The notes under the pieces were generated by a model. It was given only the letters and a program-made list of their open reading frames with translations. It made no database searches and had not been told where the DNA came from. Below are positions 26,724-58,992 of a stretch of DNA of 64,000 nt, in pieces. The position numbers and the translations under genes are program-made. How positions within the stretch are numbered: position 1 is the first letter of the stretch; every line of letters starts with the position of its first letter. Source of the DNA: Lentimicrobiaceae bacterium (lineage in GTDB: Bacteria > Bacteroidota > Bacteroidia > Bacteroidales > UBA4417); assembly GCA_033809755.1 (NCBI GenBank), contig JAPXLB010000003.1, positions 68,961 through 132,960 of the forward strand. Reading direction: 5' to 3'.

Positions 26724-26767
26724 GCAACAAAGGTAAACAGAATACTTAAATAATCGTCAAATATAAA

Positions 26768-27343: not shown

Positions 27344-27385
27344 AGTGATTTAATTTTTATTGTTTTTATAAATTGCGATTTGTAA

Positions 27386-27979: not shown

Positions 27980-28002
27980 CTCAGTATATTTTATTTTAAT
28001 GC

Positions 28003-28581: not shown

Positions 28582-28591
28582 TATAGTTGAT

Positions 28592-29599: not shown

Positions 29600-29602
29600 A
29601 TG

Positions 29603-30937
29603 TTATTTTTTTCTATTTCTAATTATTGTTCCTACAGTGTTTTTTCCAACTCTAATATAATCTAATAGTGAGCGATGGGCAGGACAAACGTACTGACAAA
29701 CACCACACTCAACACAGTCCATAATGTGGTTGTTTTCTGCCAATTCCCAATTCTTTACTATTACTGATTTTTCCAATAGATAAGGCTCAAGACCCATAGG
29801 ACAGGTTTCAACGCATTTAGCACAACGTATACAATTGCTTACGGTTTTTCTTGAAGAATCTTTTTCGTTGAGAAATAAAATTCCTGAAGTTCCTTTCATA
29901 ACAACTGCTTCAGTTGAAAAAACTGCTTTTCCCATCATAGGACCACCACTAACAACCTTATAAGTATCGACGGGCAAACCGCCAATATTGTTAATAATAT
30001 CATTTATTGGAGTACCAATTCTAATCATAAAATTATACGATTGCTCCAAAGATTTACCTGCAACAGTTACAACACGTTTTATTAGAGGAATATTTTTCAT
30101 AACCGCCTGATAAATAGCGTACGTAGTTCCAACATTTGAAACAACGCAATCAACTTCAAAAGGTAGTTTTCCCGATGGCACTTCCTTACCTGTAATAGCT
30201 TTAATAAGCTGTTTTTCGGCTCCCTGCGGATATTTAACCTTTAATGGAACTACCTGAACACCCTTATACTTTTGAACAATTTTTTGCATCGCTTCAATAG
30301 CATCAAGTTTGTTGTTTTCAATCCCAATGTAGCACTCATCAACTCCAATAGCTTTCATAATTACTGTAGCTCCGATTACCGCTTCTTCGGTATGTTCCAG
30401 CATCAGTCTATGGTCGGCTGTGAGATACGGCTCGCATTCTGCACCGTTTACAATAAGTGTGGTAACTTTTTTATCTTTCGGAATTGCAAACTTAACATTG
30501 GTCGGAAACGTAGCACCACCAAGACCTACAATTCCCATTTGCTGAATTTTATGGTTAATTGCATCTGCATCTAAATCGGTTGTGCTTATAATATCAGGCG
30601 AAAGGTCGGCAGTTTCAATCCATTGATCTTCTTCGGCTGAAATAAAAATGCTTGTAGCTTTGTATCCGCTTTGCGTAGTATATTCGTCGATTTTAGTAAC
30701 TTTTCCTGTTACGGAAGAATGGATATTAGCTGAAACAAAACCTGATGCTTCGGCTATTAGTTGTCCGGTTTTGACAAAATCGCCTTTATTAACTATTGGT
30801 TTAGATGGGGCACCTATGCTTTGAGCTATAGGTATAACAACTTCGCTAACAATAGGAAATTCGGTAATTGGAATACTTTTTGCCAACTTGTTTTCGGGAG
30901 GATGAACGCCACCTTTCCTAAATGTTTTAAGTCTCAT
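29603..30937 (-). CDS. rnfC: Rnf complex subunit C
   Basis: 444 aa. GIVGLGGATFPT and two ferredoxin motifs, CIRCAKCVETCP and CVECGVCQYVCP. Confidence 0.9.
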   Translation of the reverse strand: MRLKTFRKGGVHPPENKLAKSIPITEFPIVSEVVIPIAQSIGAPSKPIVNKGDFVKTGQLIAEASGFVSANIHSSVTGKVTKIDEYTTQSGYKATSIFISAEEDQWIETADLSPDIISTTDLDADAINHKIQQMGIVGLGGATFPTNVKFAIPKDKKVTTLIVNGAECEPYLTADHRLMLEHTEEAVIGATVIMKAIGVDECYIGIENNKLDAIEAMQKIVQKYKGVQVVPLKVKYPQGAEKQLIKAITGKEVPSGKLPFEVDCVVSNVGTTYAIYQAVMKNIPLIKRVVTVAGKSLEQSYNFMIRIGTPINDIINNIGGLPVDTYKVVSGGPMMGKAVFSTEAVVMKGTSGILFLNEKDSSRKTVSNCIRCAKCVETCPMGLEPYLLEKSVIVKNWELAENNHIMDCVECGVCQYVCPAHRSLLDYIRVGKNTVGTIIRNRKK

Positions 30938-30961
30938 TTATTCAGCTTTTTAGTTTATAAT

Positions 30962-31834
30962 TTACAATGCAACTTGTTCTGCACTTTCTACTTCATTTGC
31001 CTCAACTTTCTTTTTAATCGGAAAATTGATTTCCAGTATGGCTCCTGTTGGACAAACATCAACACACTTACGGCACAATTTGCATTTGTTGAAATCAATA
31101 TAAGCAAGGTTGTTTTCGATAGTAATAGCATCAAACGAGCAGTTTTTAGCACATATTCCGCAGCCAATACAAGCAACAGAACAATTCTTTTTTGCAACTG
31201 CACCTTTTTCTTTATTAACACACGACACGAAAACTCTTCTGTTTTTAGCACCTTTTTGTCGAAGCTCAATAATACTGCGAGGACATGCCTTAACGCAAGC
31301 ACTGCATGCTGTACACTTTTCTTCGTCAACTACAGGCAAACCGGTTTCAGGACTGATATGTATAGCATCGAATAAGCAACTCTCAACGCAATCGCCTAAA
31401 CCCAAACAGCCGTACGAGCACCCCGACTCTCCGCTGTACACCATATGAGCGTACGTACAGTTGTTCGCACCTTGATACATTGTTTTTGTGGCAGCATTGG
31501 TTTTGCTACCGTTGCAACGAACAACAGCAACCATCGGCTCGCTTTCGGTAGCTTGTAAACCCATAATCTCGCCTATAGCTTTCATGGTTTTACTACCACC
31601 AACGGGACAGTTAAGTCCTTCTAGACTTCCGGCTTTTACAATTTGTTCGGCGAGATTTCTGCAACCTGCATAGCCGCAACCGCCACAGTTAGCTCCGGGC
31701 AACGCATCGCTAACAAGGTCAATGCGAGGATCTTCAACGATTTTAAATTTTTGTGCAACAAAGTAAAGTATTATAGCAGCGAATACGCCTATACCCGATA
31801 AGGCAAGAACTGCGTAAAGAATTGTCTGACTCAC
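30962..31834 (-). CDS. rnfB: Rnf complex subunit B (polyferredoxin)
   Basis: N-terminal anchor, [14 protein letters not shown] and several CxxCxxCxxxCP clusters. Confidence 0.9.
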
Positions 31835-31909
31835 GATTTTTTGTTTTAGTTTTTATAACAGCACAAAGATAATAATTAAATATTATTTTATTTTTAAACT
31901 AATAATATT

Positions 31910-32812
31910 TTACGATATTTTATTAACATTTTTTTGTTGAAAATTAATTTGCACTATCAACATACCTGCAAACATAATAAAACAGCCGAGTATTTCTTTC
32001 AATGCAAACTGTTCGTGTAAGACTAACCAACCGCCTACTAAGGCAAATACTGTTTCAAAACTCATTATCAGAGCTGCAAGTGAGGGTTCTACAAGTTTTT
32101 GTCCCATTACTTGTAGCGTATATGCTATACCTACCGATAAAATTCCTGCATATAAAAGCGGAATCAAAGTGCTTTGCATAATGCTTAATGATACATCTTC
32201 AAATATCATTGCAGGTATTAAACTCAACAATCCGGCAATCAAAAATTGCACAAATGCCAAGTTTAATGGCTGAACTTTTTTTAAACATTTGTCTATTACG
32301 TGTATGTGCACTGCCCAACATATTGCACTTATAAACAACAAGATATCGCCTTTTTCCAACCTAAATCCTTTTTGATACGTTAGCAGCATAAGTCCTATGA
32401 GTACTACCAAAATTCCTATCCATTTTTTTCTGCTCACTTTATGACCTAATGCCAATCCCAATAAGGGAACAAAAGCAATGTAAGTTCCTGAAATAAATCC
32501 TGCCTTGCCTGCTCCGGTATATACAATCCCCATTTGCTGCAATGATGATGCAATAAACAAAGCCAAACCTGCATAAATGCTCATTTTAAAATCAGACTTT
32601 GATATTGATTTAATACCCGAACGAATGCAAATAACCACCAACACCGTACCAGCACCGAGTAAAAATCTAAAGACATTGAAGTAAAAGGGACCCATCGTTT
32701 CCATACCTACACGTTGAGCCACAAAGGCAAAGCCCCAAATAATAGCAGCAATCCACAGATATGCGTAACCCGAAATATTTTTTAACGTCTGATTTTTATG
32801 CTCGCTGTTCAT
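31910..32812 (-). CDS. DMT-superfamily (EamA-type) transporter
   Basis: 300 aa, about 10 TM helices and duplicated EamA-like halves. Confidence 0.8.
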   Translation of the reverse strand: MNSEHKNQTLKNISGYAYLWIAAIIWGFAFVAQRVGMETMGPFYFNVFRFLLGAGTVLVVICIRSGIKSISKSDFKMSIYAGLALFIASSLQQMGIVYTGAGKAGFISGTYIAFVPLLGLALGHKVSRKKWIGILVVLIGLMLLTYQKGFRLEKGDILLFISAICWAVHIHVIDKCLKKVQPLNLAFVQFLIAGLLSLIPAMIFEDVSLSIMQSTLIPLLYAGILSVGIAYTLQVMGQKLVEPSLAALIMSFETVFALVGGWLVLHEQFALKEILGCFIMFAGMLIVQINFQQKNVNKIS

Positions 32813-32890
32813 TTGAATGATTAATTTTGTGCAAACTTATACAATTTTTTCTCTTGTAAAAGAATAGGTTTATTTTTATTGAAAGAATTT

Positions 32891-32990
32891 ATTAGCTATT
32901 GGCTTTTGGCTGTTAGCTATTGGCAATTAACAATTAGCAATTAGTAATGAACAATTAGTAATTATTGTTTAGCCCGAAGTTTCGGTATTA
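32891..32990. repeat. Heptamer block (TTAGC/TTGGC type, CAATTAG type) plus CCGAAGTTTCGG hairpin
   Basis: attagctattggcttttggctgttagctattggc aattaacaattagcaattagtaatgaacaattag ... cccgaagtttcgg. Confidence 0.8.
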
Positions 32991-33010
32991 TAGCAAAATT
33001 TGGCTTTAAA

Positions 33011-33302
33011 GGTTCTATTCTTTTTTATATGTTCTTTTGTCTGTGACACAAAAGAACCAAAAAGTCAAGGCTGACATTTCTTTTCTGAATTGCGTTCTCA
33101 TAAATCCTGAGTTCGTGCGGGTGATCTCCGAGCAAGCTCGGAGCTTCCCGCCCTCACTTGGGATTTATTTCGAACTCCATTCAGAAGAAATGTATGCCAT
33201 CCTTTTAAAGCTAAATTTTTGGCTATTGCTTTTCCTTACCGTGACAAATTATTTAAATGAAAAGAAGGAAGTGTATTTATTGCTAAAAAGTTTAACAAAG
33301 TT
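33011..33302 (+). repeat. Dispersed structured repeat R1, copy a
   Basis: Alignable by eye with 55707-55996. It has a 10-bp hairpin (33031-33057) and a ~120-nt rod (33074-33193) of four nested stems. G.U wobbles favour the + strand. Confidence 0.8.
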
Positions 33303-33346
33303 ACTGACTTACGCTTGTTTTACAGAAGCGAGCGAGATACAATCTC

Positions 33347-33562
33347 ACTCATTTAAAATTCTTTTTACGCAGAATATGTATAAAAGAAACGTTAAAAATT
33401 TCTGAATCCCTGTAAGAAATTTAGTTTCTTTTATACGGTTTTTATTGCCGAAAGGCAATAAAAAATTCCTTGTAAAAAGTGTCCTTTCTTTTGTTTCGTT
33501 TTCTTTGGACAAGCAAAGAAAATGAAAGAAACAAAATTGAAACCATAAAAGCTTATCGATTA
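33347..33562. repeat. Dispersed structured repeat R2, copy a
   Basis: Near-identical by eye to 45123-45337. Three perfect hairpins: 13+8 bp; TATTGCC-GAAA-GGCAATA; 9+9 bp. Confidence 0.8.
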
Positions 33563-36044: not shown

Positions 36045-36080
36045 GTTATGGTGGTTGGTGAATGGTGGTGGTTGATGAGT
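36045..36080. repeat. G/T-rich heptamer module (GGTGGTT/GGTGAAT type) at the left edge of the island
   Basis: ggttatggtggttggtgaatggtggtggttgatgag starts directly after the guaA stop. Confidence 0.75.
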
Positions 36081-36485
36081 TTCCAGATACAAGAGTCTGT
36101 CCCGTATAGGTAACTTTTTGCTTTTGTTGCAATTGAATGTATTCTTAATAATACAAAACATGGACATAATTGTATTGTTGAAAATACAATTTTCGCACGA
36201 ATTAAACATTTATTCCGCCTAGATGATCATAAACAAAATTCCTAGAACTTTTCAAATTCTTGAAGTTTTAGGAATTTCACTTTGGGAATGTGGACGGTTT
36301 AGCGGCTGAAGAACAATGGTCATATGTATGAAACGTTGGGGATTGCGGGTTTCGTTTCTGTCTGCCGTTGCAAAAGTTGATGCGGAGCAGAACACTTCAT
36401 GTAACCAATTAACCCCATTGTTTTATACATGATGTTGTATGTTCGGCATTTTTTATCATTTATTCATACAAATATTTATTGTGCT

Positions 36486-37022
36486 CTACCAATTCAGTGC
36501 CTTGGTATACAGGCTCTCATTCTCTTTAAAATCATTGGGAAAGATTTTATAATCAATTCCATAATCTATTAGATATTGAAAAGAGCAATTGGTCTTATTT
36601 TTCTTTGAGAAATGATACAAGTTCCATAAATATCTTTTTGAAGAACCAGAAACACAAATTCTATTTATTTCATATTGGAATATTTTAAATTCAGTTGTTG
36701 ATATGTTTCCTGTTAATTTTAAATAGCAAATATAATCTATATAAGAAAACAACTTGTCAATTGAAACTTCCAGTTCACTACCATGAAATAAATCTCCGTA
36801 CCAATTTTGATTATAGTCAACTACATACATTGTTTTTGATAAATTCTGGTCAAATCTAAGTTTTTCCAGAATTTGATTGATAAATTCTGCACGTTTAGTT
36901 TTCAAACTTTTATGCCATTGCCAATAAACGAAAACACCACCAACGGCGATAAATATCAATGAAACTATTGTAAGCCAATTCTCAATAGTTAATTTTACAC
37001 ATAAGGTCATATTGTCATTCAT
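36486..37022 (-). CDS. Hypothetical membrane-anchored protein (island gene 5)
   Basis: 178 aa. One N-terminal TM helix (WLTIVSLIFIAVGGVFVYW). I recognised no motif. Confidence 0.55.
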   Translation of the reverse strand: MNDNMTLCVKLTIENWLTIVSLIFIAVGGVFVYWQWHKSLKTKRAEFINQILEKLRFDQNLSKTMYVVDYNQNWYGDLFHGSELEVSIDKLFSYIDYICYLKLTGNISTTEFKIFQYEINRICVSGSSKRYLWNLYHFSKKNKTNCSFQYLIDYGIDYKIFPNDFKENESLYTKALNW

Positions 37023-37083
37023 TATTTTCTACTATTTTCTTTAAGTTTAATTTGTTTCAAATCATCGGTTTTCTTTATGCTGA

Positions 37084-37171
37084 CACACAACGTCTTATAT
37101 ACGTAACAAATGTACAACATTCTTAAAAAAAGCAACTCATAATGTTATAAAAAACATATTTATTTAATCAA
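37084..37171 (-). promoter_or_regulatory. Island upstream module, copy C (short)
   Basis: gacacacaacgtcttATATACGTAACAAATGTACAACATTC...CATATTTATTTAATCAA aligns with the gene-proximal part of copies A and B. It lies 61-150 nt upstream of the 178-aa gene. Confidence 0.5.
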
Positions 37172-37445
37172 TAATAAAAATTAATGATACTTAAATGTTT
37201 GGCTCAACAGCAATATTAACTGCCAAATGCGATAAGGGAAGGAAAAGTTTCGTGTATAATAATTATGCTAACGGCTACGTATGTGGAAAGCAGACGATTG
37301 CGAGTTTAAACTAATAAAATCTTTACAATTTTTAAATGAGCTATAACCTCTGAATAACCTACTGAAAGTGCATTTTGTTATATCGCATGTTAAGTGTTAT
37401 TTATATTTTTAATTTATTGTCAATTGACAGTTTAAAATTTATGTA

Positions 37446-38129
37446 TTACATCATATCCTCAATATATTCTTTAAGAATTGAATTATTTATACTTTCTGTT
37501 AGCTCATGTGCTATTTGTCGTAATGATGTATATGCAGGATTATTCTCAAATAAAACGATTTGTCCGTTTACAATTAACTTTAATGAGTCATTTTGTTTAA
37601 ATTGATAATATTGGTTATTTATTTTAATGTCAAAATGATTTCCCCCGTCTTGTTCTGCTATTGAAAGAATTAATTTTTCTCTTGTCAAAATAAAACCGCT
37701 AGGATCATCGTAAATAACCTGATTATACCAATTTTCAAAATCTAATTTGTCGTTTTGCTGCCATTCGTTTTTATAAAATAATGGTTTAAAGGTGTACTTA
37801 TTTACATCATTAATCCCATTAATTTCTTTTATCACTAATCCCATATAAATTGGCATATAAATAACGGTGCAATTTCTCATCCCTTTAATAATAAAATTTG
37901 ACATTCCTCCCGATTTAGTAGATGAATCCCAATACGAAATAGAGTCTTTTTTCTCTAAGAGTTTAAGAGCTGATACATCACGGTTTTTATCTTTTAATAA
38001 ATTTCTTAAACTAACAGATATTCGTTTTATTTCGGTTATGTCTCCTTTATCATATTCTATACAAGATTTTTTGAGAAAGTAGTATTGTTCCCTAAAATTG
38101 TCTATTATTGCTAACTTGTCTCTTTTCAT
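37446..38129 (-). CDS. Hypothetical protein (island gene 4)
   Basis: 227-aa ORF, soluble. I recognised no motif. Confidence 0.55.
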   Translation of the reverse strand: MKRDKLAIIDNFREQYYFLKKSCIEYDKGDITEIKRISVSLRNLLKDKNRDVSALKLLEKKDSISYWDSSTKSGGMSNFIIKGMRNCTVIYMPIYMGLVIKEINGINDVNKYTFKPLFYKNEWQQNDKLDFENWYNQVIYDDPSGFILTREKLILSIAEQDGGNHFDIKINNQYYQFKQNDSLKLIVNGQIVLFENNPAYTSLRQIAHELTESINNSILKEYIEDMM

Positions 38130-38176
38130 TCGTTTTTATGTAAATAGCATGTTGATTAATTCCTTAAGTTAAATAG

Positions 38177-38312
38177 CACATAACGAAAACTGGTAGCCAT
38201 AATTGCCGGATTTACAGCACTTTCGCATCAATTTAGCACTTCGGTTCGTTAAAAGCACCAAAGTTTAAGTTGGCACAAAAGCCGGCAATTATCGGCTAAC
38301 ATATGTTATGTG
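38177..38312 (-). repeat. 136-nt imperfect inverted repeat E1, integron attC-like
   Basis: Termini CACATAAC (38177-38184) and GTTATGTG (38305-38312). Inner stem ATAATTGCCGG/CCGGCAATTAT plus TAGCC/GGCTA, with one bulged base (38293). Central region of ~70 nt. It starts 22 nt after the upstream gene's stop and ends 47 nt before the next ATG. Confidence 0.5.
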
Positions 38313-38334
38313 TATTTAATTATTTATCAATATA

Positions 38335-39375
38335 TTAAAACGCTTCATTTATATTTGAAATTCCTGCTTCTAATAATAAAGTTGCAAATTGAATTCCATT
38401 TACTAATTGAACTTTGTAATTTTTTGCCAACTCTTCACAATCAATTGAGTAACTATCAGCCGAAGAAATCACCCACGCAATTTTTGAAAAACCGTCATCC
38501 ATACTGCTATCTTTATATTCTTTGTATTCATTGATTTGTTCCAAAGCCCAAGAATTTGTTTCACCGTCGTGAAATTTTGCCTGAACATAAATTATTGTTT
38601 TTATTGGTTCAAAAGTTGCAATTATATCTGCATCTCCGCTTTTATCACTTTCGTTTTTAGCGGGAATATATACTTTTGATGCTCCAATTTTTCTAAAATA
38701 CCATTGAATTAATAACTCAAATTTGTCTGGGTTTAATTGACTTTTAATAATATCTAATACTTCGTTTTTTGCAGTTTCGATAATTAAACTATATAAATTT
38801 ATTGGTTTTTTGTTGTTATATGCTGTTATTGCAGTTTTTATACTTTGCTCCAAATCTGATATACAAGCATTTGTATTCTGTATTTTCATTCTTGCAGTCA
38901 AAGCATTATCTGCGTAATCATATCGAGAAATATTTGTTGCTATCGGCTTAACTCGTCTAAAAAACCCTAAATCAATATGATTTTCATTGTCAGGTTTAAT
39001 TCGATATAAACAATTATTGTCATCTTTGACAATAGAATTATCCCACCAGTCTTTTAGATTTTTAACATCTAATTCTACACTTGTAATTATTTCGTCATCA
39101 ATAATTTCATATATGGAAAATACTCCTGAACCTGGCACTAAAATATAATCTCCTTTCTCCATTTCGGAAATAAATCGCCACAAGTTATATCTTGTTCTTG
39201 GTCTATTTCCCCAAGTTTTATCAAAATAATTTTCAAACTCGTCCCAATTTCCACTACATTTTTCAATAAATTGAGGTTCTGAAAAATCCGAATATCCAAT
39301 TGATATTAATCCTTTATCCAATAATGGATATGCTAATTCAGCATGATGAGAAATCCTATGAAGCCAATAATTCAT
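38335..39375 (-). CDS. Mrr-type (PD-(D/E)xK) restriction endonuclease domain with an unassigned N-terminal domain (island gene 3)
   Basis: The C-terminal FELLIQWYFRKIGA...SGDADIIATF...IIYVQAKF matches the Mrr catalytic core (D...QxK). The ~180-aa N-terminal domain (MNYWLHRIS...KGDYILVPGSGVFSIYEI) may be a PUA/EVE-like reader. Confidence 0.7.
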   Translation of the reverse strand: MNYWLHRISHHAELAYPLLDKGLISIGYSDFSEPQFIEKCSGNWDEFENYFDKTWGNRPRTRYNLWRFISEMEKGDYILVPGSGVFSIYEIIDDEIITSVELDVKNLKDWWDNSIVKDDNNCLYRIKPDNENHIDLGFFRRVKPIATNISRYDYADNALTARMKIQNTNACISDLEQSIKTAITAYNNKKPINLYSLIIETAKNEVLDIIKSQLNPDKFELLIQWYFRKIGASKVYIPAKNESDKSGDADIIATFEPIKTIIYVQAKFHDGETNSWALEQINEYKEYKDSSMDDGFSKIAWVISSADSYSIDCEELAKNYKVQLVNGIQFATLLLEAGISNINEAF

Positions 39376-39411
39376 ATTATTTATTTATTTGATTATCATT
39401 ATTTTTTATTA

Positions 39412-39547
39412 CACATAACAGTTTTCAGCTATACGCAGGCAGGACTTTTTACCACTAAACTTCCTAAATAGTGCTGAACTTTAAATTTACTACTTTCCTG
39501 TCCTACGGAGCACGAAACTCCTACTAGCGTATAGCTGATGTTATGCC
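39412..39547 (-). repeat. 136-nt imperfect inverted repeat E2, integron attC-like
   Basis: Termini CACATAAC (39412-39419) and GTTATGCC (39540-39547). 12-bp stem TCAGCTATACGC/GCGTATAGCTGA (39425-39436/39527-39538) with asymmetric spacers (5 nt versus 1 nt). Branch hairpin GGAG-cacgaaa-CTCC. It ends 36 nt before the next ATG. Confidence 0.5.
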
Positions 39548-39610
39548 TTCGCACTTCTTTTTTAATCGTGTCAGCTTTTGTCATTTAACATCTATTTTGG
39601 CACATAGGAA

Positions 39611-42600
39611 TTAATATTCCAATCTGTTTCTTTCTGCTTCTTCGTCCATTCGTTTTGCATCTGCTAAATAACCTTGCTGCATTCGTTTAAATATCTCAGC
39701 AACATTAGGGTATTTATTTTTAAAACCATTTGATAATTTCTCAAAGTAGGCGGCTTTTCCTCTTTCAATATCTCCACCATCAAAAGCACCTCTAGTGGAC
39801 ATACCTCGTTTATTAAACATGGCAGATGAATAACCTCCTTTCAATTCATCTGTGTTGATTTCTTCAATAATTTGAAATATTTTTTCTTCTGGCCAAAAAT
39901 TACTGTTTTCAGGATACTGTGCTAAAATTTTACCAATCTCATTGTCGGCAGCTTCTAGTCTACTTACATTTTCTGCTAAAAATCTTGTTTTTGTAACCCA
40001 ATTTTTCAATATCGTTTCATCTATAAAATTATCCTCTTTCATACCTGGAATTTTTTTCCATGAATGAAGCAGATGGTAGGCTTGTTTTGCTCTATTTTGG
40101 ATAGCTTCGTCAGAAATACCTTCTCGTTCTTTTTCCAATAATGTTTTGTCTTTTGGAATGTAAATACACTTTAAAACCTCAATAAAAAAATCAGGGTTGT
40201 TTGCCAATTCTTCTTCTAAAATCTTAGGGCTTCTCCTTGCCCCGTATGAATCTAATATTGGAAGATAAAGCCACTCCAAATGAATAAGGGTTGATTTTTC
40301 AATATCTGTACGCTTGTCAAGTTCTTCAAAAATTCGTTCAATTTCATAACCTATGAAACGTGGCGTTTCACTTGCTTCCTCTGTCGCTGCTTTTTTCAAC
40401 ATCTCTGAAAGCAGATTACTTGAAATTACGTTTGCTAAATGTGAAGCTATATCTATTGCAGAAAAGAATCTTTTGTATTTCAAAAGCATTTCAATTCCAA
40501 TTGTTTTTTCTTCATCGGTAATATGATAAAAATGTGGGTTGATGTTTTGCCAATATTCATTTTGTATTTCTTCATCTAATGAAGCTACATAATTCCATAA
40601 TTGTTGATTTTGATTTAGTGGAATTAGAACATTAGAAAGTGCTTTATTGCTAAACTTCTTTTCTTGTAATTCTTTGAATAATGATTTTATCCAATCAAAG
40701 TTTTCAATGATTGATTTACGATAGATAAAGTTGTGAGCAAAACCAATAAGATTTTTATCGTCATACAAACATTCACAAACTGTAATAACTTCTTCTTTAT
40801 TTGTAATTATGCCAGCTAAAGCACCACCTAAAAGCCAAAACTCTTTAACTTGTTTTCGTAATTCTAAGGTTGCGTTTAAGCCTAATTCTTGAAGAAAAAC
40901 AGTCACTGCTGTTTTTCTTGCTTCATCAATACGCTTTTGTTGTTGATCGTACAGTTCACCTGACTTATTAAGTTCGTATTTAAAGCCTTCTGGAAACTTA
41001 GGCCAATGTTCATTGAAAAGCCAAATGTATTTGTGGATGGTGTCTGTTGGTTGAAGTTTGTTATACAAATTTTCCAACCGTACCAACTCGGATTCTGGTA
41101 AAGCCCAATCGGTATCAGGATGAGACCTGTGATGATTTAAAATTCCCCTTATTGTTTCCCAAGTTGAAAATTTTTCCTGTTTGATATTTGGGTAAACTTC
41201 ATCAGCCCAATCTAAAACTCTTTTTCTGTCTTTAGGAGAAAGATTGGGTATTTCTTTTATGAGTTGAGAAAATTTTTCTTCATCATTATCAAAAAGGTTT
41301 ATAAGCATTTCTATTACTGATGAATGCGTATTCCATATTTCTTTATATGTGTATGTAAGGTTAGTGTTCTTGTCAAACATTCGCCAACGCATTTTATGTG
41401 TAGGATGAGCAATCCCGTGATGGTCAGGAAGCATTCTTATTAAAAGATTCCAACCCAATTCTTTTTCTTTTTCAGTAACGAATTTTAGAATTTCCATTCT
41501 TTCATCAAAAGATGCAAGAGTTTGAAAATGCCACGGTTTAAAAATTTCTGTAACGCTATTCAATGGTCTGTTTGACAAACTACCTCCTGGGTCAAGTCTT
41601 GAAAGTTTTAGCAGAATCAAACTTACATCTCTTAAATATTCTGGCAACCAAGCTAAATTTTCAAGTGCCCACAACAATCCTGTGTGATGACTTGTTTTGT
41701 GCAAAAAACCATCTTCCTCTTTGAACATATCCATTATTTCGGGCTGTTTTTTTGCTAAAGAATTTTTTACAGCTTTGAGAAAACTTTCAGGTGACGCTTC
41801 TGAAATAAGTGGCAATTCGTTGTCAACGGAAATCCAGATTTCTCCACTTGCGTTATAAAGTAAATCAAAAATAATATTATCAACCCAGCTTTGAGGATTA
41901 TCAAGATTGGGGATTTTCACATCATTTAATAGTCCAATTAAAATTAAAGATTGTATTAGCCCTTCCCTAGACCAATTAGAGTATTTGTGTTTTTTGTTGA
42001 AATAAGCCGCAAAACTGTTTTTTTCTTCGGGTTCAATGACTGGATTTCCATTCTTAAACGCCATTGAAAAACATTCTTTAATATTTTGAAAATCTTTTGT
42101 TGTAAGTTGATAGGAAAGATTTGTCCATAAATCTAATGGCGAAGTTAATCGCCAAGTTTTTCCGATTTGTATGATTGGTGATTCTTCAAAATTTCTCCAT
42201 TTGTTAAGTGTTACCAAATAGTCGGAATACTTTTGTTCAGAAAGTTTTTCAATTAGTTCAATATCGCCAACAAAAGTTTCATTCCATCTCCCTAATAAAA
42301 GTGCGGGTATTATCTCACGAATGTTTTCTTTTTCAATCCATTTTGCTTTGTAATAAGGAAAGCCTAGTAGTTTTTTAAGAATAGTAATATTTCGCCCTGA
42401 TTCTTTAGATAATTTTTCTGCATATTCTCTTGATATACCGCTTTCAATTAACGATTTTATTTGCCCGTCCCTATCTATTGTTGGCAGTGTGATAATTTCT
42501 TGATTGAAATTGTCATCTGCACCGAGAGGAACTAATACGTGGTTTCCTTTTGATACAGCTAAGTAAAGAGGTTGCGCTTCATCAAATCTTGGAATGAGAT

Positions 42601-43408
42601 TTAAAGTAGAGGATACATTGTTTCTTACTATTCCACGAAAATTACCTTCTGTATCTATTATTAGTGCTTTAGAAAAAAATCTGTCAGCCTCTTCAGGAGG
42701 AAACGTTTTTGCTGATGCAATAATGAAAGCAATTGCTTCATTTTTTGTAGAAGCTTTAATTCCTTTAATTGTAGGTTCTCCTTGTAATGCTGACAACAAT
42801 AAGTCCTTTTCATATTCTCTGCCTGCAATTATACTTTCAGGTGAAAGAATTAATCCTTTTGGCCCGATTGACCATTCTTCCCAAAATTCATCAGCAGTCA
42901 TTATTCCATCAAATGGATATGTTCCAACTCCATCTTGCGAAGCAAACCAACGTGAAACTGATTGTGCATTATCAAGCCATTGTTCTAAGTCCATTGAATC
43001 ATATACTTTAACATCTTTCCAATGATTTTCGGCTTTTTTTGCTGCAATCCATTCGTCTTTTTTTGTCCAAAGTCTGGGTGTTACAAATATAAAAACAGAA
43101 TCGCTAGGTGTAAAACCTATTGGATTCTTTTTTCTTTTATCATAATCATCATCAGCTTTTCCTTTACAATCAGACGAAGTACCAAACTCCCACAAAGAAG
43201 TTCCTTGAGGTACATAAGCCGTTTCGGTTTCACAAATGACAATTCCATCCCAACCTCCGATATAGGTCGCACTACCTGAAGGAAGATTTGCTTTTGTGCT
43301 TGCAGGCGTTGTTGCTCTTACTAATCTTGAAATTAAATAAGGCAAAACAGCCTTTGAAAAGGTTGTGTCTGCCCATCTTTCGAGATTATTTCTGGTAACA
43401 AGTTTCAT
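39611..43408 (-). CDS. 1265-aa protein of unknown function (island gene 2)
   Basis: Long uninterrupted ORF with no Walker A or helicase motif. The ~170-aa N-terminal globular region (GGWDGIV...SLWEFGTSSDCKGK) is followed by more than 1000 aa that look helical-repeat-like. Antisense ORFs inside it were rejected. Confidence 0.8.
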   Translation of the reverse strand: MKLVTRNNLERWADTTFSKAVLPYLISRLVRATTPASTKANLPSGSATYIGGWDGIVICETETAYVPQGTSLWEFGTSSDCKGKADDDYDKRKKNPIGFTPSDSVFIFVTPRLWTKKDEWIAAKKAENHWKDVKVYDSMDLEQWLDNAQSVSRWFASQDGVGTYPFDGIMTADEFWEEWSIGPKGLILSPESIIAGREYEKDLLLSALQGEPTIKGIKASTKNEAIAFIIASAKTFPPEEADRFFSKALIIDTEGNFRGIVRNNVSSTLNLIPRFDEAQPLYLAVSKGNHVLVPLGADDNFNQEIITLPTIDRDGQIKSLIESGISREYAEKLSKESGRNITILKKLLGFPYYKAKWIEKENIREIIPALLLGRWNETFVGDIELIEKLSEQKYSDYLVTLNKWRNFEESPIIQIGKTWRLTSPLDLWTNLSYQLTTKDFQNIKECFSMAFKNGNPVIEPEEKNSFAAYFNKKHKYSNWSREGLIQSLILIGLLNDVKIPNLDNPQSWVDNIIFDLLYNASGEIWISVDNELPLISEASPESFLKAVKNSLAKKQPEIMDMFKEEDGFLHKTSHHTGLLWALENLAWLPEYLRDVSLILLKLSRLDPGGSLSNRPLNSVTEIFKPWHFQTLASFDERMEILKFVTEKEKELGWNLLIRMLPDHHGIAHPTHKMRWRMFDKNTNLTYTYKEIWNTHSSVIEMLINLFDNDEEKFSQLIKEIPNLSPKDRKRVLDWADEVYPNIKQEKFSTWETIRGILNHHRSHPDTDWALPESELVRLENLYNKLQPTDTIHKYIWLFNEHWPKFPEGFKYELNKSGELYDQQQKRIDEARKTAVTVFLQELGLNATLELRKQVKEFWLLGGALAGIITNKEEVITVCECLYDDKNLIGFAHNFIYRKSIIENFDWIKSLFKELQEKKFSNKALSNVLIPLNQNQQLWNYVASLDEEIQNEYWQNINPHFYHITDEEKTIGIEMLLKYKRFFSAIDIASHLANVISSNLLSEMLKKAATEEASETPRFIGYEIERIFEELDKRTDIEKSTLIHLEWLYLPILDSYGARRSPKILEEELANNPDFFIEVLKCIYIPKDKTLLEKEREGISDEAIQNRAKQAYHLLHSWKKIPGMKEDNFIDETILKNWVTKTRFLAENVSRLEAADNEIGKILAQYPENSNFWPEEKIFQIIEEINTDELKGGYSSAMFNKRGMSTRGAFDGGDIERGKAAYFEKLSNGFKNKYPNVAEIFKRMQQGYLADAKRMDEEAERNRLEY

Positions 43409-43475
43409 ATTTTAATTGCGATTTCTTTTGTTTCTCTTTATGCTTCTTGTCGGTGGTATCTTCTTTTAGAGTGAG

Positions 43476-43672
43476 GCATAACGCCCCATATACGTAACAA
43501 ATGTACAACATTCGTACATATAAAACACAATTTGAATAACAAAAATACATTTATTTATCCAACAAACAAATTTTATAACACCAAATATTATTTTTGTACC
43601 TAATGGCAAAATCCGACAAGTAAAAGAAGCGTTTTATAAATAAGCTTTAAGGGTATATCTCTTTTGAAGTAT
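43476..43672 (-). promoter_or_regulatory. Island upstream module, copy A
   Basis: Aligns by eye with 44878-45048 over ~170 nt. On the - strand it contains TATTTTTG (a TAnnTTTG-type box) and the ATGTAC-gaatgtt-GTACAT hairpin. On the + strand it has TATTTTTG followed by the mini-ORF ATGGCAAAATCCGACAAGTAA. Confidence 0.55.
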
Positions 43673-43767
43673 AAGCCTGCTAACAGACGACAATACGCAA
43701 CGTAAGGATTTTGCGGTGACGAACCAATTATCAGTAACAAACCTTGCTGGCTAGCAATGCGTTTAAC

Positions 43768-44814
43768 CTACCAATAACACTCCCATGGTGTATAACAGCA
43801 CCTTATGCCCAGCTTTTTTATTATCCTTCCGTTATAATAAGTCAAATAATTTTCGTCTGCAATTGATTTGTTCTTGATTTTCCAATAATTTTTGAGTCTA
43901 TTTCCAAGTGAAGAAACGGCAACTTTACATCGAATATTACTCATTTCCTTTCCCCAATGAGTTCCATGATGTGGTAATATCACCATATCCCAATATGAAT
44001 TGTTTGAAACAGATAAATTATATTCCAATGCATTGTCTATCTCATTTGCCTCCAAATCACCTAAAAACAATAGCTGATTATTACAATATGCTAATGATAT
44101 TCTATTTGCAATTCCTCTTAATTCATCATTTAAATTTTTAATATGCTTCAATCTTTCATTACGCTGTTCAGAATCAATTAAATTTATTGTTCCTTTCTCT
44201 GTTTGCTCCGACTCAAAATTAAATTCTTCTTCTTTATCTTGATAGAAAGAATTATCTAATGTCTTATATATTTTTTGTAAAATGTCATCTTTCTGTAATT
44301 CTTCATTAAAAAGCTTTATTACTTTTTCTACCGATTCGGTAAAGGAATTGTCTATCTCTCTTGGAGGCCAAATTACTTGAAATGATTTCTGACCCAAATT
44401 AATAAAATCACCCTGGGAAACAGGAATAACATTGAACCTTCTATTATAGCTGATTTTTGAGATTAAATTAATAAAATCATACTCCATACTTCCTGAATCA
44501 TTACCCAACAAGTAAAAATTAACCGTCTGGAAAGCTTTTAGCAATGCAGACCTATTACTAAATTTTGGAAGTCTAGGGAAATAGACGGTATCTATATGGG
44601 CACACATCCCCGAATGTGCAATATTCACTAAACCACTATAATGGTCAGAATGGAAATGTGACAACACGAACGAAAATGGAAAGGAATGACAAAATCTATA
44701 TAATAATCCCTTATTCACGTCGTGCTGGGAACCAAAGTCAGTTACAAGTCTTTCATTTTTTAATCTAAAATCAACAAACAGACCATCTCCAATGTCATTT
44801 ATTATTACAATCAT
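43768..44814 (-). CDS. Metallo-beta-lactamase-fold hydrolase, ComEC-like subtype (island gene 1)
   Basis: HxHxDH motif SHFHSDHYSG, then FLGDLE and ILPHHGTHWG, which resembles the ComEC/Rec2 MBL domain. There are no membrane segments. Confidence 0.75.
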   Translation of the reverse strand: MIVIINDIGDGLFVDFRLKNERLVTDFGSQHDVNKGLLYRFCHSFPFSFVLSHFHSDHYSGLVNIAHSGMCAHIDTVYFPRLPKFSNRSALLKAFQTVNFYLLGNDSGSMEYDFINLISKISYNRRFNVIPVSQGDFINLGQKSFQVIWPPREIDNSFTESVEKVIKLFNEELQKDDILQKIYKTLDNSFYQDKEEEFNFESEQTEKGTINLIDSEQRNERLKHIKNLNDELRGIANRISLAYCNNQLLFLGDLEANEIDNALEYNLSVSNNSYWDMVILPHHGTHWGKEMSNIRCKVAVSSLGNRLKNYWKIKNKSIADENYLTYYNGRIIKKLGIRCCYTPWECYW

Positions 44815-44860
44815 AATGCAATTTTTAATATTTTATTTTCAAACTTTCTTTTCTTAATTA

Positions 44861-45048
44861 CTTACAACAATTATTTTCACGTATCAAATGTACAACATTT
44901 TTATAAAAACAAGTAAAAACGCAAATTTATTTATCCAACAAACAAATCAAATAACACCAAATGTTATTTTTGTAGTTAATGGCAAAATCCGACAAGAAAA
45001 AGAAACGTTTTATAAATAAGCTTTAAGGGTATATCTCTTTTGGAATAT
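44861..45048 (-). promoter_or_regulatory. Island upstream module, copy B
   Basis: See copy A. The + strand mini-ORF is intact here (44979-45026, MAKSDKKKKRFINKL). Confidence 0.55.
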
Positions 45049-45049
45049 T

Positions 45050-45117
45050 GTTAGCTATTGGGCATTGGCTATTGGCTATTAGCCATTGGCTATTGGCTGA
45101 TGCGTGTTGCGGGTTAG
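45050..45117. repeat. G/T-rich heptamer block (ATTGGCT type) plus GCGTGTTGCGGGTTAG
   Basis: gttagctattgggcattggctattggctattagccattggctattggctgatgcgtgttgcgggttag. Confidence 0.8.
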
Positions 45118-45122
45118 ATTTT

Positions 45123-45337
45123 ACTCATTTAAAATCCTTTTTACGCAGAATATGTATAAAAGAAACGTTAAAAATTTCTGAATCCCTGTAAGAAATTTAG
45201 TTTCTTTTATACGGTTTTTATTGCCATAGGGCAATAAAAAATTCCTTGTAAAAAGTGTCTTTTCTTTTGTTTCGTTTTCTTTGGACAAGCAAAGAAAATG
45301 AAAAAAACAAAATTGAAACCGTAAAAGTTTATTGATT
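45123..45337. repeat. Dispersed structured repeat R2, copy b
   Basis: Near-identical by eye to 33347-33562. The tetraloop hairpin has loop ATAG where copy a has GAAA. Confidence 0.8.
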
Positions 45338-45454
45338 GGAAAAAAGCCTAATTTGGATAACTGTTAGCTGGTATGAGGTGCGGGTTAGTTCTGAGTCGGG
45401 AGTATTGAGTTGAAACATTTCGGTCGCTGAGCGCCGAAGCCCAATGTATTATCT

Positions 45455-45519
45455 ATTTTCGGCATTTCGATACACCGATATTTCACTTCGTTCAATATCG
45501 GCACTCAATGACCGAAAAT
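45455..45519. repeat. Palindromic unit R3, copy a
   Basis: ATTTTCGG...CCGAAAAT outer stem and CCGATATT/AATATCGG inner stem. Shares CATTTCGATAC and CACTCAATGACCGAAAAT with 56028-56091. Confidence 0.7.
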
Positions 45520-45543
45520 ATAAAACTCGTAACTAACACCGAC

Positions 45544-45620
45544 CAATCACCAATCACCAATCACCAATCACCAATCACCAATCACCAATCACCACTCACC
45601 ACTCACCACTCACCACCACC
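45544..45620. repeat. C/A-rich heptamer array: (CAATCAC) about 7 times, then (CACTCAC) 3 times
   Basis: caatcaccaatcaccaatcacc...actcaccactcaccactcaccaccaccc. It abuts the 3' end of osmC, and heptamer-like sequence (caccaatcac) continues a few codons into the gene. Confidence 0.85.
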
Positions 45621-45622
45621 CA

Positions 45623-46039
45623 CTATTCACCAATCACTATCTCATGCGTAATTTTCATTACCTGCTTGTAAACATGATTTACCCCACAATACTTTTCTAA
45701 CGATAAGTTTACGGCTTTTTCAACTTTTTCCTTATCAATATTATCGCCTTTCAGCTTGTATATGATGTGCATAGCAGTGTAGTGCTTTGGATGTTCTTCG
45801 GTCATTTCGGCTTCAATAACTACGTCAAATTCGTCGAATTGTACTTTCATTTTGTTTAAAATAGATACAACGTCCATTCCTGTACATCCAGCCAATGCTG
45901 TTATCATCAACGGTTTTGGAAGTACACCGCTCTCTTCTCCGCCACTTTCAACCTTCGCATCCATAATTACATCGTGATTGTTAACTTTCGATAGGAATTT
46001 CATCTTTCCTTGCCATTTAGTTTCAATAGTCTGTTTCAT
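45623..46039 (-). CDS. OsmC/Ohr-family peroxiredoxin-like protein
   Basis: PKPLMITALAGCTGMDVVSIL and LEKYCGV. I prefer the start MKQTIE (46039) over the hydrophobic 19-codon extension. Confidence 0.8.
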   Translation of the reverse strand: MKQTIETKWQGKMKFLSKVNNHDVIMDAKVESGGEESGVLPKPLMITALAGCTGMDVVSILNKMKVQFDEFDVVIEAEMTEEHPKHYTAMHIIYKLKGDNIDKEKVEKAVNLSLEKYCGVNHVYKQVMKITHEIVIGE

Positions 46040-46197
46040 AATTAGTAATATTAGTATGTTAGTACAAAAGTATAAAATTGTTTTGCAAAAGTACAAAATA
46101 TCTATATATCTATATGTTTTTATATTTAGATTTGAAACTTTTTAAAATTTTTCCAATTATCAAACTTTGCAGGTTATAAAAATGTTATATATTTGCA

Positions 46198-46355
46198 AGC
46201 GAAAATTGGTTCTACAAAAGATTAAAAGGGAATGCCGTGAGAATCGGCAACAGTACCCGCTGCTGTGAGTTTTAAAAGCATTTTTATTAAGCCACTGTAT
46301 TTTTATGGGAAGGCAAAAATGTACGAAACAAGTCAGAAGACCTACCATTTTCAAA
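46198..46355 (+). promoter_or_regulatory. Cobalamin (B12) riboswitch
   Basis: AAGGGAATGCCGTGAGAATCGGCA, CCCGCTGCTGTGA, GCCACTG, GGGAAGGC and the B12 box AGTCAGAAGACCTACC (46331-46346). P1 is aaaattggt/accatttt. Promoter TTTG 46166-46169 and TATATTTG 46188-46195. Confidence 0.85.
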
Positions 46356-46487
46356 TTACATAATACGACTTCCGGGATTAGAGGTCTGAGATGTGTCGAT
46401 ATTTCAGTATATTACCTCCATCCATTTCGTATTTTGTTATAAATAGATATTGAAGTATTTATTAATGAACAATTAAAATATAACAAA

Positions 46488-49400
46488 ATGAGAAAATTTA
46501 ATCTGTTGCTATTAGCATTAATTGCTATTATTCAAACAAGTGTAGCTCAAACAAAATTGAGCGGAGAGTACATAATTAGCCAAAACACAGCACATAATCC
46601 TGATTATACAAGTTTTCAGGCAGCGATTGACGATGCTACAACCAAAGGTGTACAAGGTATAGTTACCTTTAAGGTTATGCCTGGCACTTATGAAGAGTTT
46701 GTATCTATTACGACTATTAACGACCTAAGTGCTGAAAATCAGATTGTTTTTAAAGGTATAGCTCCCGACAACCAACAAGTTGTTTTAACCGGAAATGCAG
46801 GATATTTAGAAAAACCAATAATTAAATTTTCGGCGGTAAGGTACATTACTTTTAAAAACATGAAAATAGTTACCACATCAAGTAATTATGGGAATTTAGT
46901 TGTGTTTGAAAATAAAGTTAATAACTTGACCTTCGACAGTATATATTTTCATGGTATTGATGTTACTGCTAATACATTTAACAACGACAAACATATTATT
47001 TTCGATAATAGCAAAAGTGCCGATTACACCGATTCGGATTTACATTTTTTAAATTCGCAATTTGTAAATGGTAACATGGCTTTTTACTTACAAGGCAATA
47101 ACGCTATAACTCCGCCCGACAGCAACTTAGTAATTGAAAACTGCACGTTTACAAACCAGTACACAAAAACTATTTATGCCACTTATCAAAAAAACGCTTC
47201 CATCAAAAATAATAAAATCAGCAACAACGAAGATATAAAAAACGGATTTCAAGCTATTGATTTGTTTCGGGTTTACGACAATAGCATAATTGAAAACAAT
47301 ATAATCAACATTGATTTTTCGACAAAAGACGGAACAGGTATTGAAGTTCGTCCTGCTATTGGCTCTGCCACAGAACCTGTTATTATAAGAAATAATATGG
47401 TTAAAATTACTTCCAATTCCAACCTTAATTATGCTTTCAAACTTTCTAACAGTAGTAGCGAAAATGTAATTCTGGCTAACAATACTGCACTTATGCAAGG
47501 CACAGGAAGCGGTGCTGTTGTTTACATTGATGCCGTCATCCCAAACTTTAAAATGTATAATAATCTGTTTGTAAGCGAAAATAGTGGATATATTGTCAGG
47601 CATCAGAAAACGGATATAAGTAATTTTACTTCCAATTTTAACAGATGTCTTTTCAACGGTAACTATTACGGCAGAATCGGCTCAAACGAATATGCTACTT
47701 TACAGGAATGGCAAACGGCTTCCGGTAACGATAATAACACAGAAATTATAAGTACAAATCCTTTTATTTCGAATACCAATCTGCATATAAGTAATAGCAC
47801 AAACCTAACTGTTGCAAATCCTTTGAGCTACGTAACTCACGATATCGACAACGAACTGCGTTCGACAACGACACCGTGTGCAGGTGCTGACGAAATCGTT
47901 TCGGGTGGAAATCTTCCACCATACGTTGCAAACCCTATCAGCGACGTTATTTTTGAAAATGCAAACGACAGCACAATTATTTCGTTAAACAATACTTTTG
48001 CCGACCCCGACGACCCAGATGAGGATATTGTAATAAGTATTGCGTCGAATTCCAATCCGCAATTGGTTGAAGCTACGTTGCTTGCAGGAAACAGAGATTT
48101 GAAAGTCAAACGAATAAGTCCTGATGCAGGCACTTCAACTATAGTTTTATCGGCAAATAGCAATGGACAAACTGTTGAAACTTCTTTTAACGTAATATGC
48201 AATGTTCCGGCAGTTGCTCCCGTTATTGCCAATCAGGTTGACCCTGTGAATTTTACCACGTATCCCGAAACTAAAACCATTAATCTTACCAATGCTTTTG
48301 CAGTTCCGGGCAACCCCAATGCCAACATGCAACTGACAATTCAAAGTTCTACTAACACTCATGTTCAGTCTTCTCTTTCTGCAAATATATTGACCTTACA
48401 GAGAATCAATCCTACAGCTTTCACTAATCACGAAGTTGTAATACGTTGTACGTACAACAGCTTATTTGTTGATATGACAATACTAATGTCGGGCACTGAA
48501 GCTACTGCAGCACATGGTACAGCAACTTTTGAAGATATTACACTGAACAGTAATGGCACATGGACGCCGCCACAAACAGGTGATAATGAAATGATTAGCG
48601 ACACATGGAGCTTTTATAACCATTATCATAATTCGTATTGGGGTGGATTTACCGCTTCAAACAGGACAGATACGACATTAAGCGGAATGGCTGCTCAATA
48701 TACTGCTATTGCAGGCGAAGGCGTAAACGAATCAGAGCAATATGCAGTCGGCTTTACAATGGGTTATCCTGCTGATGTAAAACCCGTTGATAATAATCCG
48801 GACGTTGTTTCGGGCTGCTACGTAACCAACAATTTATGGGCATACAGAGCAATTTTGGAAGGTGATGGTTATGGTCCTGCTTTCGGTGGAAACTCCGGAA
48901 ATGACCCCGACTACTTCAGAGTTTGGGCTGTTGGAAAAAGAGAAAATAACACATATACCGACACATTGTACTACTACCTTGCCGACTACCGTTCGCCAAA
49001 CAACTCGGAAGATTATGTTGTTAACACTTGGGAATGGTTTGACCTTTCTACTATGGGAATTATAAAATCCATACGCTTTGGGTTGCAATCGTCAAGGAGT
49101 AATGCGTGGGGAATGACTACACCTGCTTATTTTTGCATGGACGACTTCAACGGCATCCCTCCCACTACACCAAACCAACCGCCTTACGTTGCTAACAGCA
49201 TCGACGATGTGCTATTTACAACTTATCCTTGTTACGATACATTAGACTTAACTAATACCTTTGCCGACCCCGACGATCCAAGCGACAGTATTGTTTTAAG
49301 CGTTGGTGGTAATACTAATCCGCAACTTGTTCAGGCAACTATTGATGAAAAAACGCTGTATTTGGAAAGACTTTCAAGCGAAAATGATACGGTTCTCATT

Positions 49401-56694: not shown

Positions 56695-56733
56695 AATTAG
56701 AAATCAAACATTAATCTTTAAAAAACAATAACC

Positions 56734-57201: not shown

Positions 57202-57253
57202 AAAAATAAATAGAAATTAAATTAAACAATAACCAATAAAAATTTTTAAAACA

Positions 57254-57967: not shown

Positions 57968-57992
57968 CAAAATGTGATTTTTAGTTAATTTT

Positions 57993-58026
57993 AAAGCTGC
58001 CTCAAATTTTGGGGCAGCTTTTTTTC
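57993..58026 (+). terminator. Intrinsic terminator after the peroxiredoxin gene
   Basis: AAGCTGCC-tcaaattttgg-GGCAGCTT followed by TTTTTTT. Confidence 0.8.
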
Positions 58027-58114
58027 AATTTTTAGAATTTATCAACTTAATAAAAAGGTAATGTAATAAATTGCGGATATTTCATAAATTTGCACTGCGA
58101 AAAGCAAGAACCTT

Positions 58115-58981: not shown

Positions 58982-58992
58982 ATTAACCTTAT

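Follow-up and report, generated by a model that had tools for sequence, protein, structure and literature searches.

Results

A gene island with intergenic hairpins

In the present study, we analyzed a window of 64,000 nt from Lentimicrobiaceae bacterium (GCA_033809755.1, contig JAPXLB010000003.1, positions 68,961 to 132,960 of the forward strand), in which the interval between guaA and an OsmC-family gene is a 9.6-kb AT-rich island with five open reading frames (ORFs), all co-oriented on the minus strand, and with long intergenic hairpins (Table 1). The first-pass annotation, which was made from the sequence, had likened this island to a cluster of integron attC sites lacking an integrase (CALIN) with defense-like cargo in a Bacteroidota genome; the host is a Bacteroidales metagenome-assembled genome (MAG), in agreement with that description. 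The island is also present in the Bacteroidales MAG GCA_049658625.1 and in several Logan contigs. Island-free close relatives were sought, and the exact guaA product was found on one other contig only, from the same strain, while the osmC product was not on record.

Two of the hairpins, E1 and E2, follow ORF3 and ORF4 at distances of 22 and 63 nt, respectively. Each reads CATAAC-N120-GTTATG, with 132 nt from CATAAC to GTTATG and 136 nt from end to end; the positions, length, and distances given in the first-pass annotation are correct, and the GTT sites it listed upstream of all five island ORFs were found. The pattern matched twice in the window against 0.18 matches expected, and one in 100 shuffles reached two. 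Both elements fold as long imperfect DNA hairpins (z of -4.4 for E1 and -5.0 to -5.3 for E2), and none of 200 shuffles was equally stable.

Two further sites lie after ORF1 and ORF2. The former, E0, had been described as a weaker 114-nt hairpin; it is a full member of the family introduced below (82 bits with the covariance model R1), and its interior CGCATCAACTTTTG..GACAG is shared with a locus of Flavobacterium filum (L046; other loci are likewise given by L numbers). The site after ORF2 is attC-like and degenerate; in a search without filters, R1 matched it along the entire model at 21.6 bits (E = 5e-4), and it was outside the training set of the model. The four sites lie within 3.3 kb, and no integrase was found for at least 18 kb on either side, two blocks of ORFs being outside the Pfam scan.

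The hairpin family

In many Bacteroidota, Mrr homologues are followed by a homologous hairpin of near-constant length, as they are in two MAGs of the candidate phyla radiation (Parcubacteria and Patescibacteria) and in one MAG labelled Proteobacteria. An alignment of 18 members from 12 sources (A4) was used to build R1. Members are 124-141 nt long, including 7 flanking nt in this frame, and all but one are 136-141 nt. The alignment contains three covarying helices, in which 84.6% of cells are paired, compared with 33-41% when the partners are slid; both sides have changed in 18 of 22 pairs, 89 cells are compensatory, and none of 500 shuffles reached the covariation score. AAC and GTT are invariant in all 18 members, and a fourth pair, T-A/G, is kept. 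E1 and E2, which had been thought to share only their ends, are thus members of one homologous family with a fixed length and a conserved interior motif. The consensus consists of R'' (nnnTAAC), A, a stem of at least 11 bp, a second GC-rich stem, and the interior GACAGnnAAGTGCT...AAAUCC, followed on the 3' side by the return arms, the AAAMC bulge, and GTTRnnn.

In the window, R1 matches were confined to the island and separated the two strands clearly, with 76-87 bits on the gene strand against 9-13 bits on the other (E1, 76.4 against 8.9; E2, 87.5 against 12.6). In other loci, 43 of 45 sites were on the gene strand, the two exceptions being weak opposite-strand echoes of strong sites. Sites may be dense, with eight in 6 kb of Salinimicrobium (L030) and five each in L033 and L045; further sites are present in L081 and L082. 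A long Bacteroidales cassette array (L012) also contains a group II intron D1-D4 fragment (82 bits; 6173-6309) inside the array, a DUF805b RNA motif (9730-9762) in the 5' leader of a DUF6140-Mrr cassette, and a CRISPR-like repeat region with low-complexity spacers (11036-12266) beyond the last site.

Cassette ends and reassortment

Each cassette begins directly behind a G|TT when read along the gene strand, and its first bases are complementary to the AAC box of its own downstream hairpin (Table 1). The mismatch between the two ends of E2 (GGCATAAC and GTTATGTG) had been treated as a deviation; it arises because R'' pairs with the start of its own cassette, of which GGCATAAC is the exact complement, while R' belongs to the next cassette. 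Among 29 consecutive-site cassettes from 12 sources, own-end complementarity averaged 5.07 of 6 variable positions and was perfect in 20, compared with 2.42 of 6 for the R' of the same site and 2.35 of 6 for random pairs. Such complementarity is the prediction for a cassette that can be circularized.

The ORF3 gene (P0002) occurs at 99% identity in three contexts, namely, behind ORF4 and E2 in the window, behind a 143-aa ORF and a different hairpin (L008, L009, and L011), and behind a third element (L010). Homology between the copies begins exactly at GTTATGTG, and E1 is kept downstream in L010 and L011. The cassette boundaries that had been proposed at GTT are supported by these three neighbors with junctions at GTT, and the attC-like behavior proposed for the hairpins by own-end complementarity, reassortment, and strict polarity with the genes. 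The units run from TT... to the G of their own site, and that of ORF3 recurs in different arrays with its junction at G|TT, as is the case for integron gene cassettes.

Table 1. Features of the guaA-osmC island and its flanks (R'' and R', AAC and GTT boxes on the gene strand; own-end complementarity as matching positions).
Feature	Coordinates	Strand	Description
guaA	34515-36044	+	One island flank
E0	36308..36441	-	ORF1 cassette hairpin, final site of the array; R'' CATACAAC, R' hybrid GTTCTTC
ORF1 cassette	36314..37090	-	ORF 36486-37022, 178 aa, unknown, plus E0; start GTTGTGTG against own R'' CATACAAC, 7/8
P copy C	37092..37271	-	Diverged; between GTTAGCA of the degenerate site and G|TT of the ORF1 cassette
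Degenerate site	37263..37399	-	attC-like, after ORF2; R'' CACTTAAC, R' GTTAGCA
ORF2 cassette	37272..38183	-	ORF 37446-38129, 227 aa, unknown, plus degenerate site; start GTTATGTG against own R'' CACTTAAC, 7/8
E1	38177..38312	-	ORF3 cassette hairpin; R'' CACATAAC, R' GTTATGTG
ORF3 cassette	38184..39418	-	ORF 38335-39375, 346 aa, Mrr-type restriction endonuclease, plus E1; start GTTATGTG against own R'' CACATAAC, 8/8
E2	39412..39547	-	ORF4 cassette hairpin; R'' GGCATAAC, R' GTTATGTG (R' belongs to the next cassette)
ORF4 cassette	39419..43481	-	ORF 39611-43408, 1265 aa, no known family; TTATGCC to G of the E2 R' box; start GTTATGCC (43475-43482) against own R'' GGCATAAC, 8/8
P copy B	43483..43683	-	Between GTTAGCA (43678-43684) and G|TT of the ORF4 cassette
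ORF5 unit	43768..44868	-	ORF 43768-44814, 348 aa, weak MBL/Avs1a-like; starts at GTTGTAAG (44861-44868)
P copy A	44869..45048	-	Ends one base before G|TT of the ORF5 unit; direct-repeat families D2-D4
OsmC-family gene	45623-46096	-	Other island flank

The P repeats

The remaining three junctions carry a direct repeat of approximately 190 nt, designated P, which was overlooked in the first-pass annotation. Copies A and B are 92% identical over 124 nt, and copy C has diverged. All three end at the base preceding a cassette-starting G|TT, and GTTAGCA stands directly in front of both copy B and copy C. The core conserved at the 3' end (AATGTTGTACATTTGWTACGT) holds direct GTTRYRY motifs, and its 21-mer occurs three times in the window against none expected, with zero matches in GTDB representative genomes and in Joint Genome Institute (JGI) metagenomes. 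Motifs of the Bacteroidetes -7 type (TAnnTTTG) were recognized by eye in copy A (TAAATTTG) and copy B (TATTTTTG), and copy C has an imperfect version of the motif.

P is not an R1-type site. The P junctions were also considered as long hairpins, and folding gave no clean R''/R' hairpin. No recombinase relic was detectable in or beside the repeat (best independent E of 6.2). Comparable long repeats ending in ...GAGAC|GTT are present in the L012 array. P may be a promoter-bearing unit without an ORF, or it may combine a promoter with the relic of an insertion-site left arm.

Between P copy A and osmC, approximately 450 nt are non-coding (45100-45540). The motif TGCGGGTTAG is duplicated here (45090-45126 and 45361-45397), two hairpins are present (45261-45312 and 45407-45528), and no recombinase relic was detected in 45100-45540. 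Both island borders carry low-complexity runs of G/T-rich heptamers (GGTGATT or TTGGCTA type on the array strand; 36045-36080, 45050-45100, and 45540-45640 in the window), and a similar run adjoins the truncated recombinase gene of L046 (7985-8065).

Recombinases of related arrays

The proposal that the array lacks an integrase is borne out in the window. The Pfam scan, which covered 45 window ORFs and left those at 26034-33405 and 56278-59751 outside, contained no recombinase, and tblastn with IntI1 and three array-recombinase fragments gave no match over the whole 64 kb. A 103-member profile run in six frames did not reveal a recombinase pseudogene in the island (best independent E of 6.2), while the same search found a relic in L013 at 6e-9.

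Regarding related loci, R1-type arrays are headed by a co-oriented and apparently intact tyrosine recombinase in Cyclobacterium lianum (L029, in which the contig end cuts the N-terminus), in the complete genome of Deferribacteraceae V6Fe1 (CP063375.1; L081, with the recombinase at 10001-10837), and in L082. The insertion point lies approximately 50-150 nt past the recombinase stop codon in all three, and the R'' of the first cassette is complementary to the junction at 6 of 6 variable positions, or 9 of 9 over a 9-mer (for example, GTTGTGGTG / CACCACAAC in L081). Truncated or pseudogene recombinases head the arrays of Proteiniphilum (L026), F. filum (L046), L077, and L013. Two degenerate relics of a recombinase C-terminus (640-743 and 2848-3022, the second being the match at 6e-9) were noted in L013 in a repeat behind a GTT box inside the array, which suggests that platform fragments can be duplicated within arrays.

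The array-head enzyme is approximately 280 aa long. It passed NF040815 ("site-specific tyrosine recombinase/integron integrase") with 234-245 bits (cut-off of 220) and remained below the integron integrase model TIGR02249, with a two-stretch match of 208-223 bits (cut-off of 265). Its alignment with IntI1 has a gap of 44-45 residues opposite residues ~194-253, which correspond to the IntI-specific additional domain. The combination that makes up a complete integron, an IntI with the I2 helix beside attI, was found neither in the window nor among the related array-head enzymes.

Comparison with canonical attC sites

The hairpins are bounded by the inverse core boxes of attC sites, R'' (RYYYAAC) and R' (GTTRRRY), and E1 and E2 fit this pattern at six of seven positions, in agreement with the first-pass annotation. 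Their interior is organized in another manner. Six real attC sites from class-1 integrons have a 7-bp R box, an unpaired spacer of 5 by 6 nt, and an L box with a one-base bulge, whereas the island family has a spacer of 0-3 nt in the 5' arm, a bulge of 4-6 nt in the 3' arm, and no L bulge, and thus departs from the attC geometry.

These six plasmid-borne sites were used to build a surrogate covariance model, R2, which is narrow; additional class-1 plasmids yielded no new attC types. R2 scored 60-70 bits on its own training sites and 24.5 bits on an independent canonical-type site in L034, and with filters off, it gave no match at E0, E1, or E2, a result that is suggestive but not decisive for a narrow surrogate. 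R1, in turn, gave no match on class-1 integron loci. The assignment of the hairpins to attC was therefore upheld in part: the AAC/GTT boxes and the cassette logic agree with it, whereas membership in the canonical attC/IntI system is not supported by the spacer geometry, the R2 result, or the array-head enzyme.

The site in L034 (1904-2010, a Kapabacteria MAG) is a canonical-type attC (GTCTAAC AACTA...) accompanying the same Mrr gene family. In a Victivallaceae MAG (L070), a start of the form GTCTAAC AACT... was seen by eye, and R2 gave no match there. One Mrr gene family appears to be used by two site types, the canonical-type attC and, in Bacteroidota, the R1 type.

Cargo genes and other window content

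ORF3 encodes an Mrr-type nuclease (Pfam Mrr_cat, 4.7e-8; PADLOC PDC-S02, 5e-12), and ORF5 has a weak Avs1a/MBL-like signal of 22 bits against a cut-off of 420. ORF1, ORF2, and ORF4 had no match in Pfam, NCBIfam, PADLOC, or PDB sequences. The description of the cargo as defense-like therefore applies to ORF3 and weakly to ORF5, and not to the other three. Homologues of ORF4 are 70-90% identical across Bacteroidota classes, from Bacteroidales to Flavobacteriia, which indicates recent horizontal spread.

Outside the island, the scanned ORFs of the window were housekeeping genes (e.g., FTHFS, GcvP, and PEPCK) or had no Pfam match; the Rnf genes at ~26-32 kb, which lay outside the scan, take their names from L002, in which the same island was annotated with Pfam. 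An Rfam search of the window detected a cobalamin riboswitch and a tRNA only, with nothing at the hairpins. Downstream of the riboswitch (46190-46363, 113 bits), a DUF4465 protein of 1273 aa that carries a Por-secretion tail is encoded (46488-50309). Beyond the tRNA (15554-15627), four overlapping ORFs of ~140 aa without a Pfam match lie in tandem (15709-17379, minus strand), and a near-perfect, terminator-like hairpin of 73 nt (AAACTCTTATGTGGG...CCCACATAAGAGTTT), unrelated to the cassette sites, is located at 17691-17763.

Discussion

The hairpins of the island are structured and polar, the ends of its cassettes are complementary, and ORF3 has been reassorted at GTT. The island probably represents an integron-type array of five co-oriented cassettes without a recombinase of its own. 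Each hairpin (E2, E1, the degenerate ORF2 site, and E0) would then serve one cassette as its 3' recombination site, in which the AAC box R'' is followed by a long covarying stem, an interior conserved in part, the return arm, a bulge of 4-6 nt (AAAMC), and the GTT box R'. Strand exchange would occur in or beside G|TT, so that a cassette would begin with TT... and close with the G of its own site, and full pairing of the AAC/GTT box would be restored in an excised circle. The enzyme may be an Xer/IntI-like tyrosine recombinase of approximately 280 aa of the NF040815 type, without the IntI insertion and either encoded elsewhere in the genome or lost, and it may act on folded single strands as IntI does. 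The P repeats may occupy the position of the left arm of an insertion site or may be ORF-less promoter units that could drive the downstream cassettes.

The island is outside the canonical integron family on two defining features, namely, the spacer geometry of its sites and the IntI-specific domain of the associated enzyme. We tentatively propose, as a reading that is about as likely as not, that the hairpins are the recombination sites of a distinct integron lineage, which is widespread in Bacteroidota and also present in Deferribacteraceae and other lineages, and the integrase of which is an Xer/IntI-like enzyme of approximately 280 aa without the I2 helix. IntI is defined by its specific additional domain (Cury et al.; PMC4889954), and Escudero and colleagues (PMC7790495) present I2 as the innovation that gave single-strand recombination. 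Smyshlyaev et al. (2021) described the insertion as "not fully conserved" in an integron-like subgroup. Full-text literature searches on integrons and cassette arrays in Bacteroidota returned no description of arrays run by an insertion-less enzyme.

Several points weigh against the reading of the island as an integron-type array. ORF5 is not followed by a recognizable hairpin, even with R1 filters off, the site of ORF2 is degenerate, and the P repeats fit neither a simple cassette nor an insertion-site model. In L008, E1 is absent after ORF3, and divergence begins 16 nt past the stop codon (2940-3072; contig coverage of 2.9x); this copy may be a chimera or a deletion variant. Homologues of ORF4 in L083 and L085 have no flanking R1 sites and, thus, the ORF4 gene is not always a cassette. 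Recombination is read from the comparison of sequences, in which the crossover can be placed no more finely than the shared GTTATGTG. Moreover, the suggested link between the island and an NF040815-type enzyme rests on other genomes since the window is without a recombinase, and a canonical IntI may be encoded elsewhere in the host genome.

Considering the P repeats, the island may alternatively be, instead of a single array with P cassettes that have no ORF, three small arrays fused head to tail, each headed by a relic platform in which P represents the left arm of attI and a promoter. Each of the three P copies stops precisely where a cassette begins, GTTAGCA precedes both copy B and copy C, -7-like motifs of the Bacteroidetes type are present in copies A and B, and the array in L013 includes two repeats with a recombinase pseudogene. 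However, no recombinase remnant is detectable in or beside P, the repeat does not resemble the insertion sites that follow the intact recombinases in L029, L081, and L082, its promoter motif is imperfect in copy C, and its core is absent from the GTDB representative genomes and JGI metagenomes. A fusion of this kind is possible, but we regard it as somewhat doubtful.

It is unlikely that the island is an ordinary integron remnant, that is, a CALIN with canonical attC sites mobilized by a standard, I2-bearing IntI whose gene lies at another place in the genome or is no longer present. The AAC/GTT boxes, cassette logic, and co-orientation all match integrons, integrons have been reported in Bacteroidota (PMC8618304), and the Mrr gene family is also accompanied by a canonical-type attC in L034. 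Nevertheless, R2 did not match E0-E2 even though it recognized its training sites and the site in L034, and the spacer geometry differs. In a tblastn search with IntI1 of 64 loci (L076-L085 not being among them), insertion-bearing IntI was found in the four class-1 control plasmids only; the matches in array loci were insertion-less recombinases or fragments (L029 and L063) or were too short for a distinction (L026, L046, and L054). Furthermore, IntegronFinder surveys report almost no integrons in Bacteroidetes (PMC9024848).

It is very improbable that the hairpins are transcription terminators, repeats similar to repetitive extragenic palindromes (REP) or miniature inverted-repeat transposable elements (MITE), or the ends of single-strand transposons that lie between genes by chance: they are stable, intergenic, and downstream of ORFs, and the window holds the terminator-like hairpin at 17691-17763, but they lack a trailing T-run, they occur within the 64 kb in the island only and are thus not dispersed in the manner of MITE or REP, their interiors diverge while the ends and length are kept and the structure covaries, the complementarity of R'' to a distant cassette 5' end would be unexplained, and no transposase was found among the Pfam-scanned ORFs of the window.

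The island sites resemble integron attC sites and CALIN (Cury et al., 2016; PMC4889954) in that AAC/GTT-bounded imperfect hairpins lie 3' of co-oriented unrelated ORFs, structure is conserved above sequence, the ends of each cassette are complementary, junctions are at G|TT, and no integrase is nearby. They differ in the one-sided AAAMC bulge (0-3 by 4-6 nt against 5 by 6), the lack of a single-base bulge in the L box, a length fixed near 130 nt, a partly conserved interior, one cassette of 4 kb, and the null result with the class-1 covariance model. Whether the island is a CALIN, which comprises at least two close attC sites with no integrase nearby, depends on whether its sites are counted as attC. 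Sedentary chromosomal integrons, such as those with Vibrio cholerae repeats (VCR type), similarly maintain one long homogeneous site family through large arrays; their site family is restricted to a single genus, whereas the island family extends over several phyla. Integrons with restriction and defense cargo have been described (bioRxiv 10.1101/2024.07.02.601686), and similar cargo is present in island-type arrays. In archaeal integrons, intI is co-oriented with the cassettes and attI is just downstream of intI (PMC9668308). This layout is matched by the related arrays, in which the recombinase is co-oriented and the insertion site follows its stop codon.

The array-head recombinase is without the insertion that defines the IntI of integrons, and Xer systems offer a second point of comparison. 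Elements of the CTX-phage type exploit XerCD, and such enzymes can use a folded single-strand hairpin. The CTX-type systems and the pdif modules of Acinetobacter rely on 28-bp dif-like sites and on the chromosome-dimer resolvases of the host. The island family resembles these systems in that discrete DNA modules would be moved by an Xer-like tyrosine recombinase without the I2 helix, but differs in its polar 130-nt hairpins, ordered arrays, and dedicated recombinase gene.

If a distinct lineage exists, it would either preserve an ancestral state from before I2 or have arrived at cassette capture independently, and current integron finders would miss or mislabel its arrays. According to surveys of complete genomes, integrons are almost absent from Bacteroidetes (PMC9024848). 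If these hairpins do form a functional cassette system, sizeable arrays have been overlooked in Bacteroidota, and restriction and other accessory genes are exchanged through them across classes, as exemplified by the 1265-aa ORF4 protein, which extends from Bacteroidales to Flavobacteriia. Integron-detection tools would then have to be extended by a model for these sites and a profile for their integrase, and the link to an insertion-less recombinase makes it testable whether the I2 helix is truly required for folded cassette sites.

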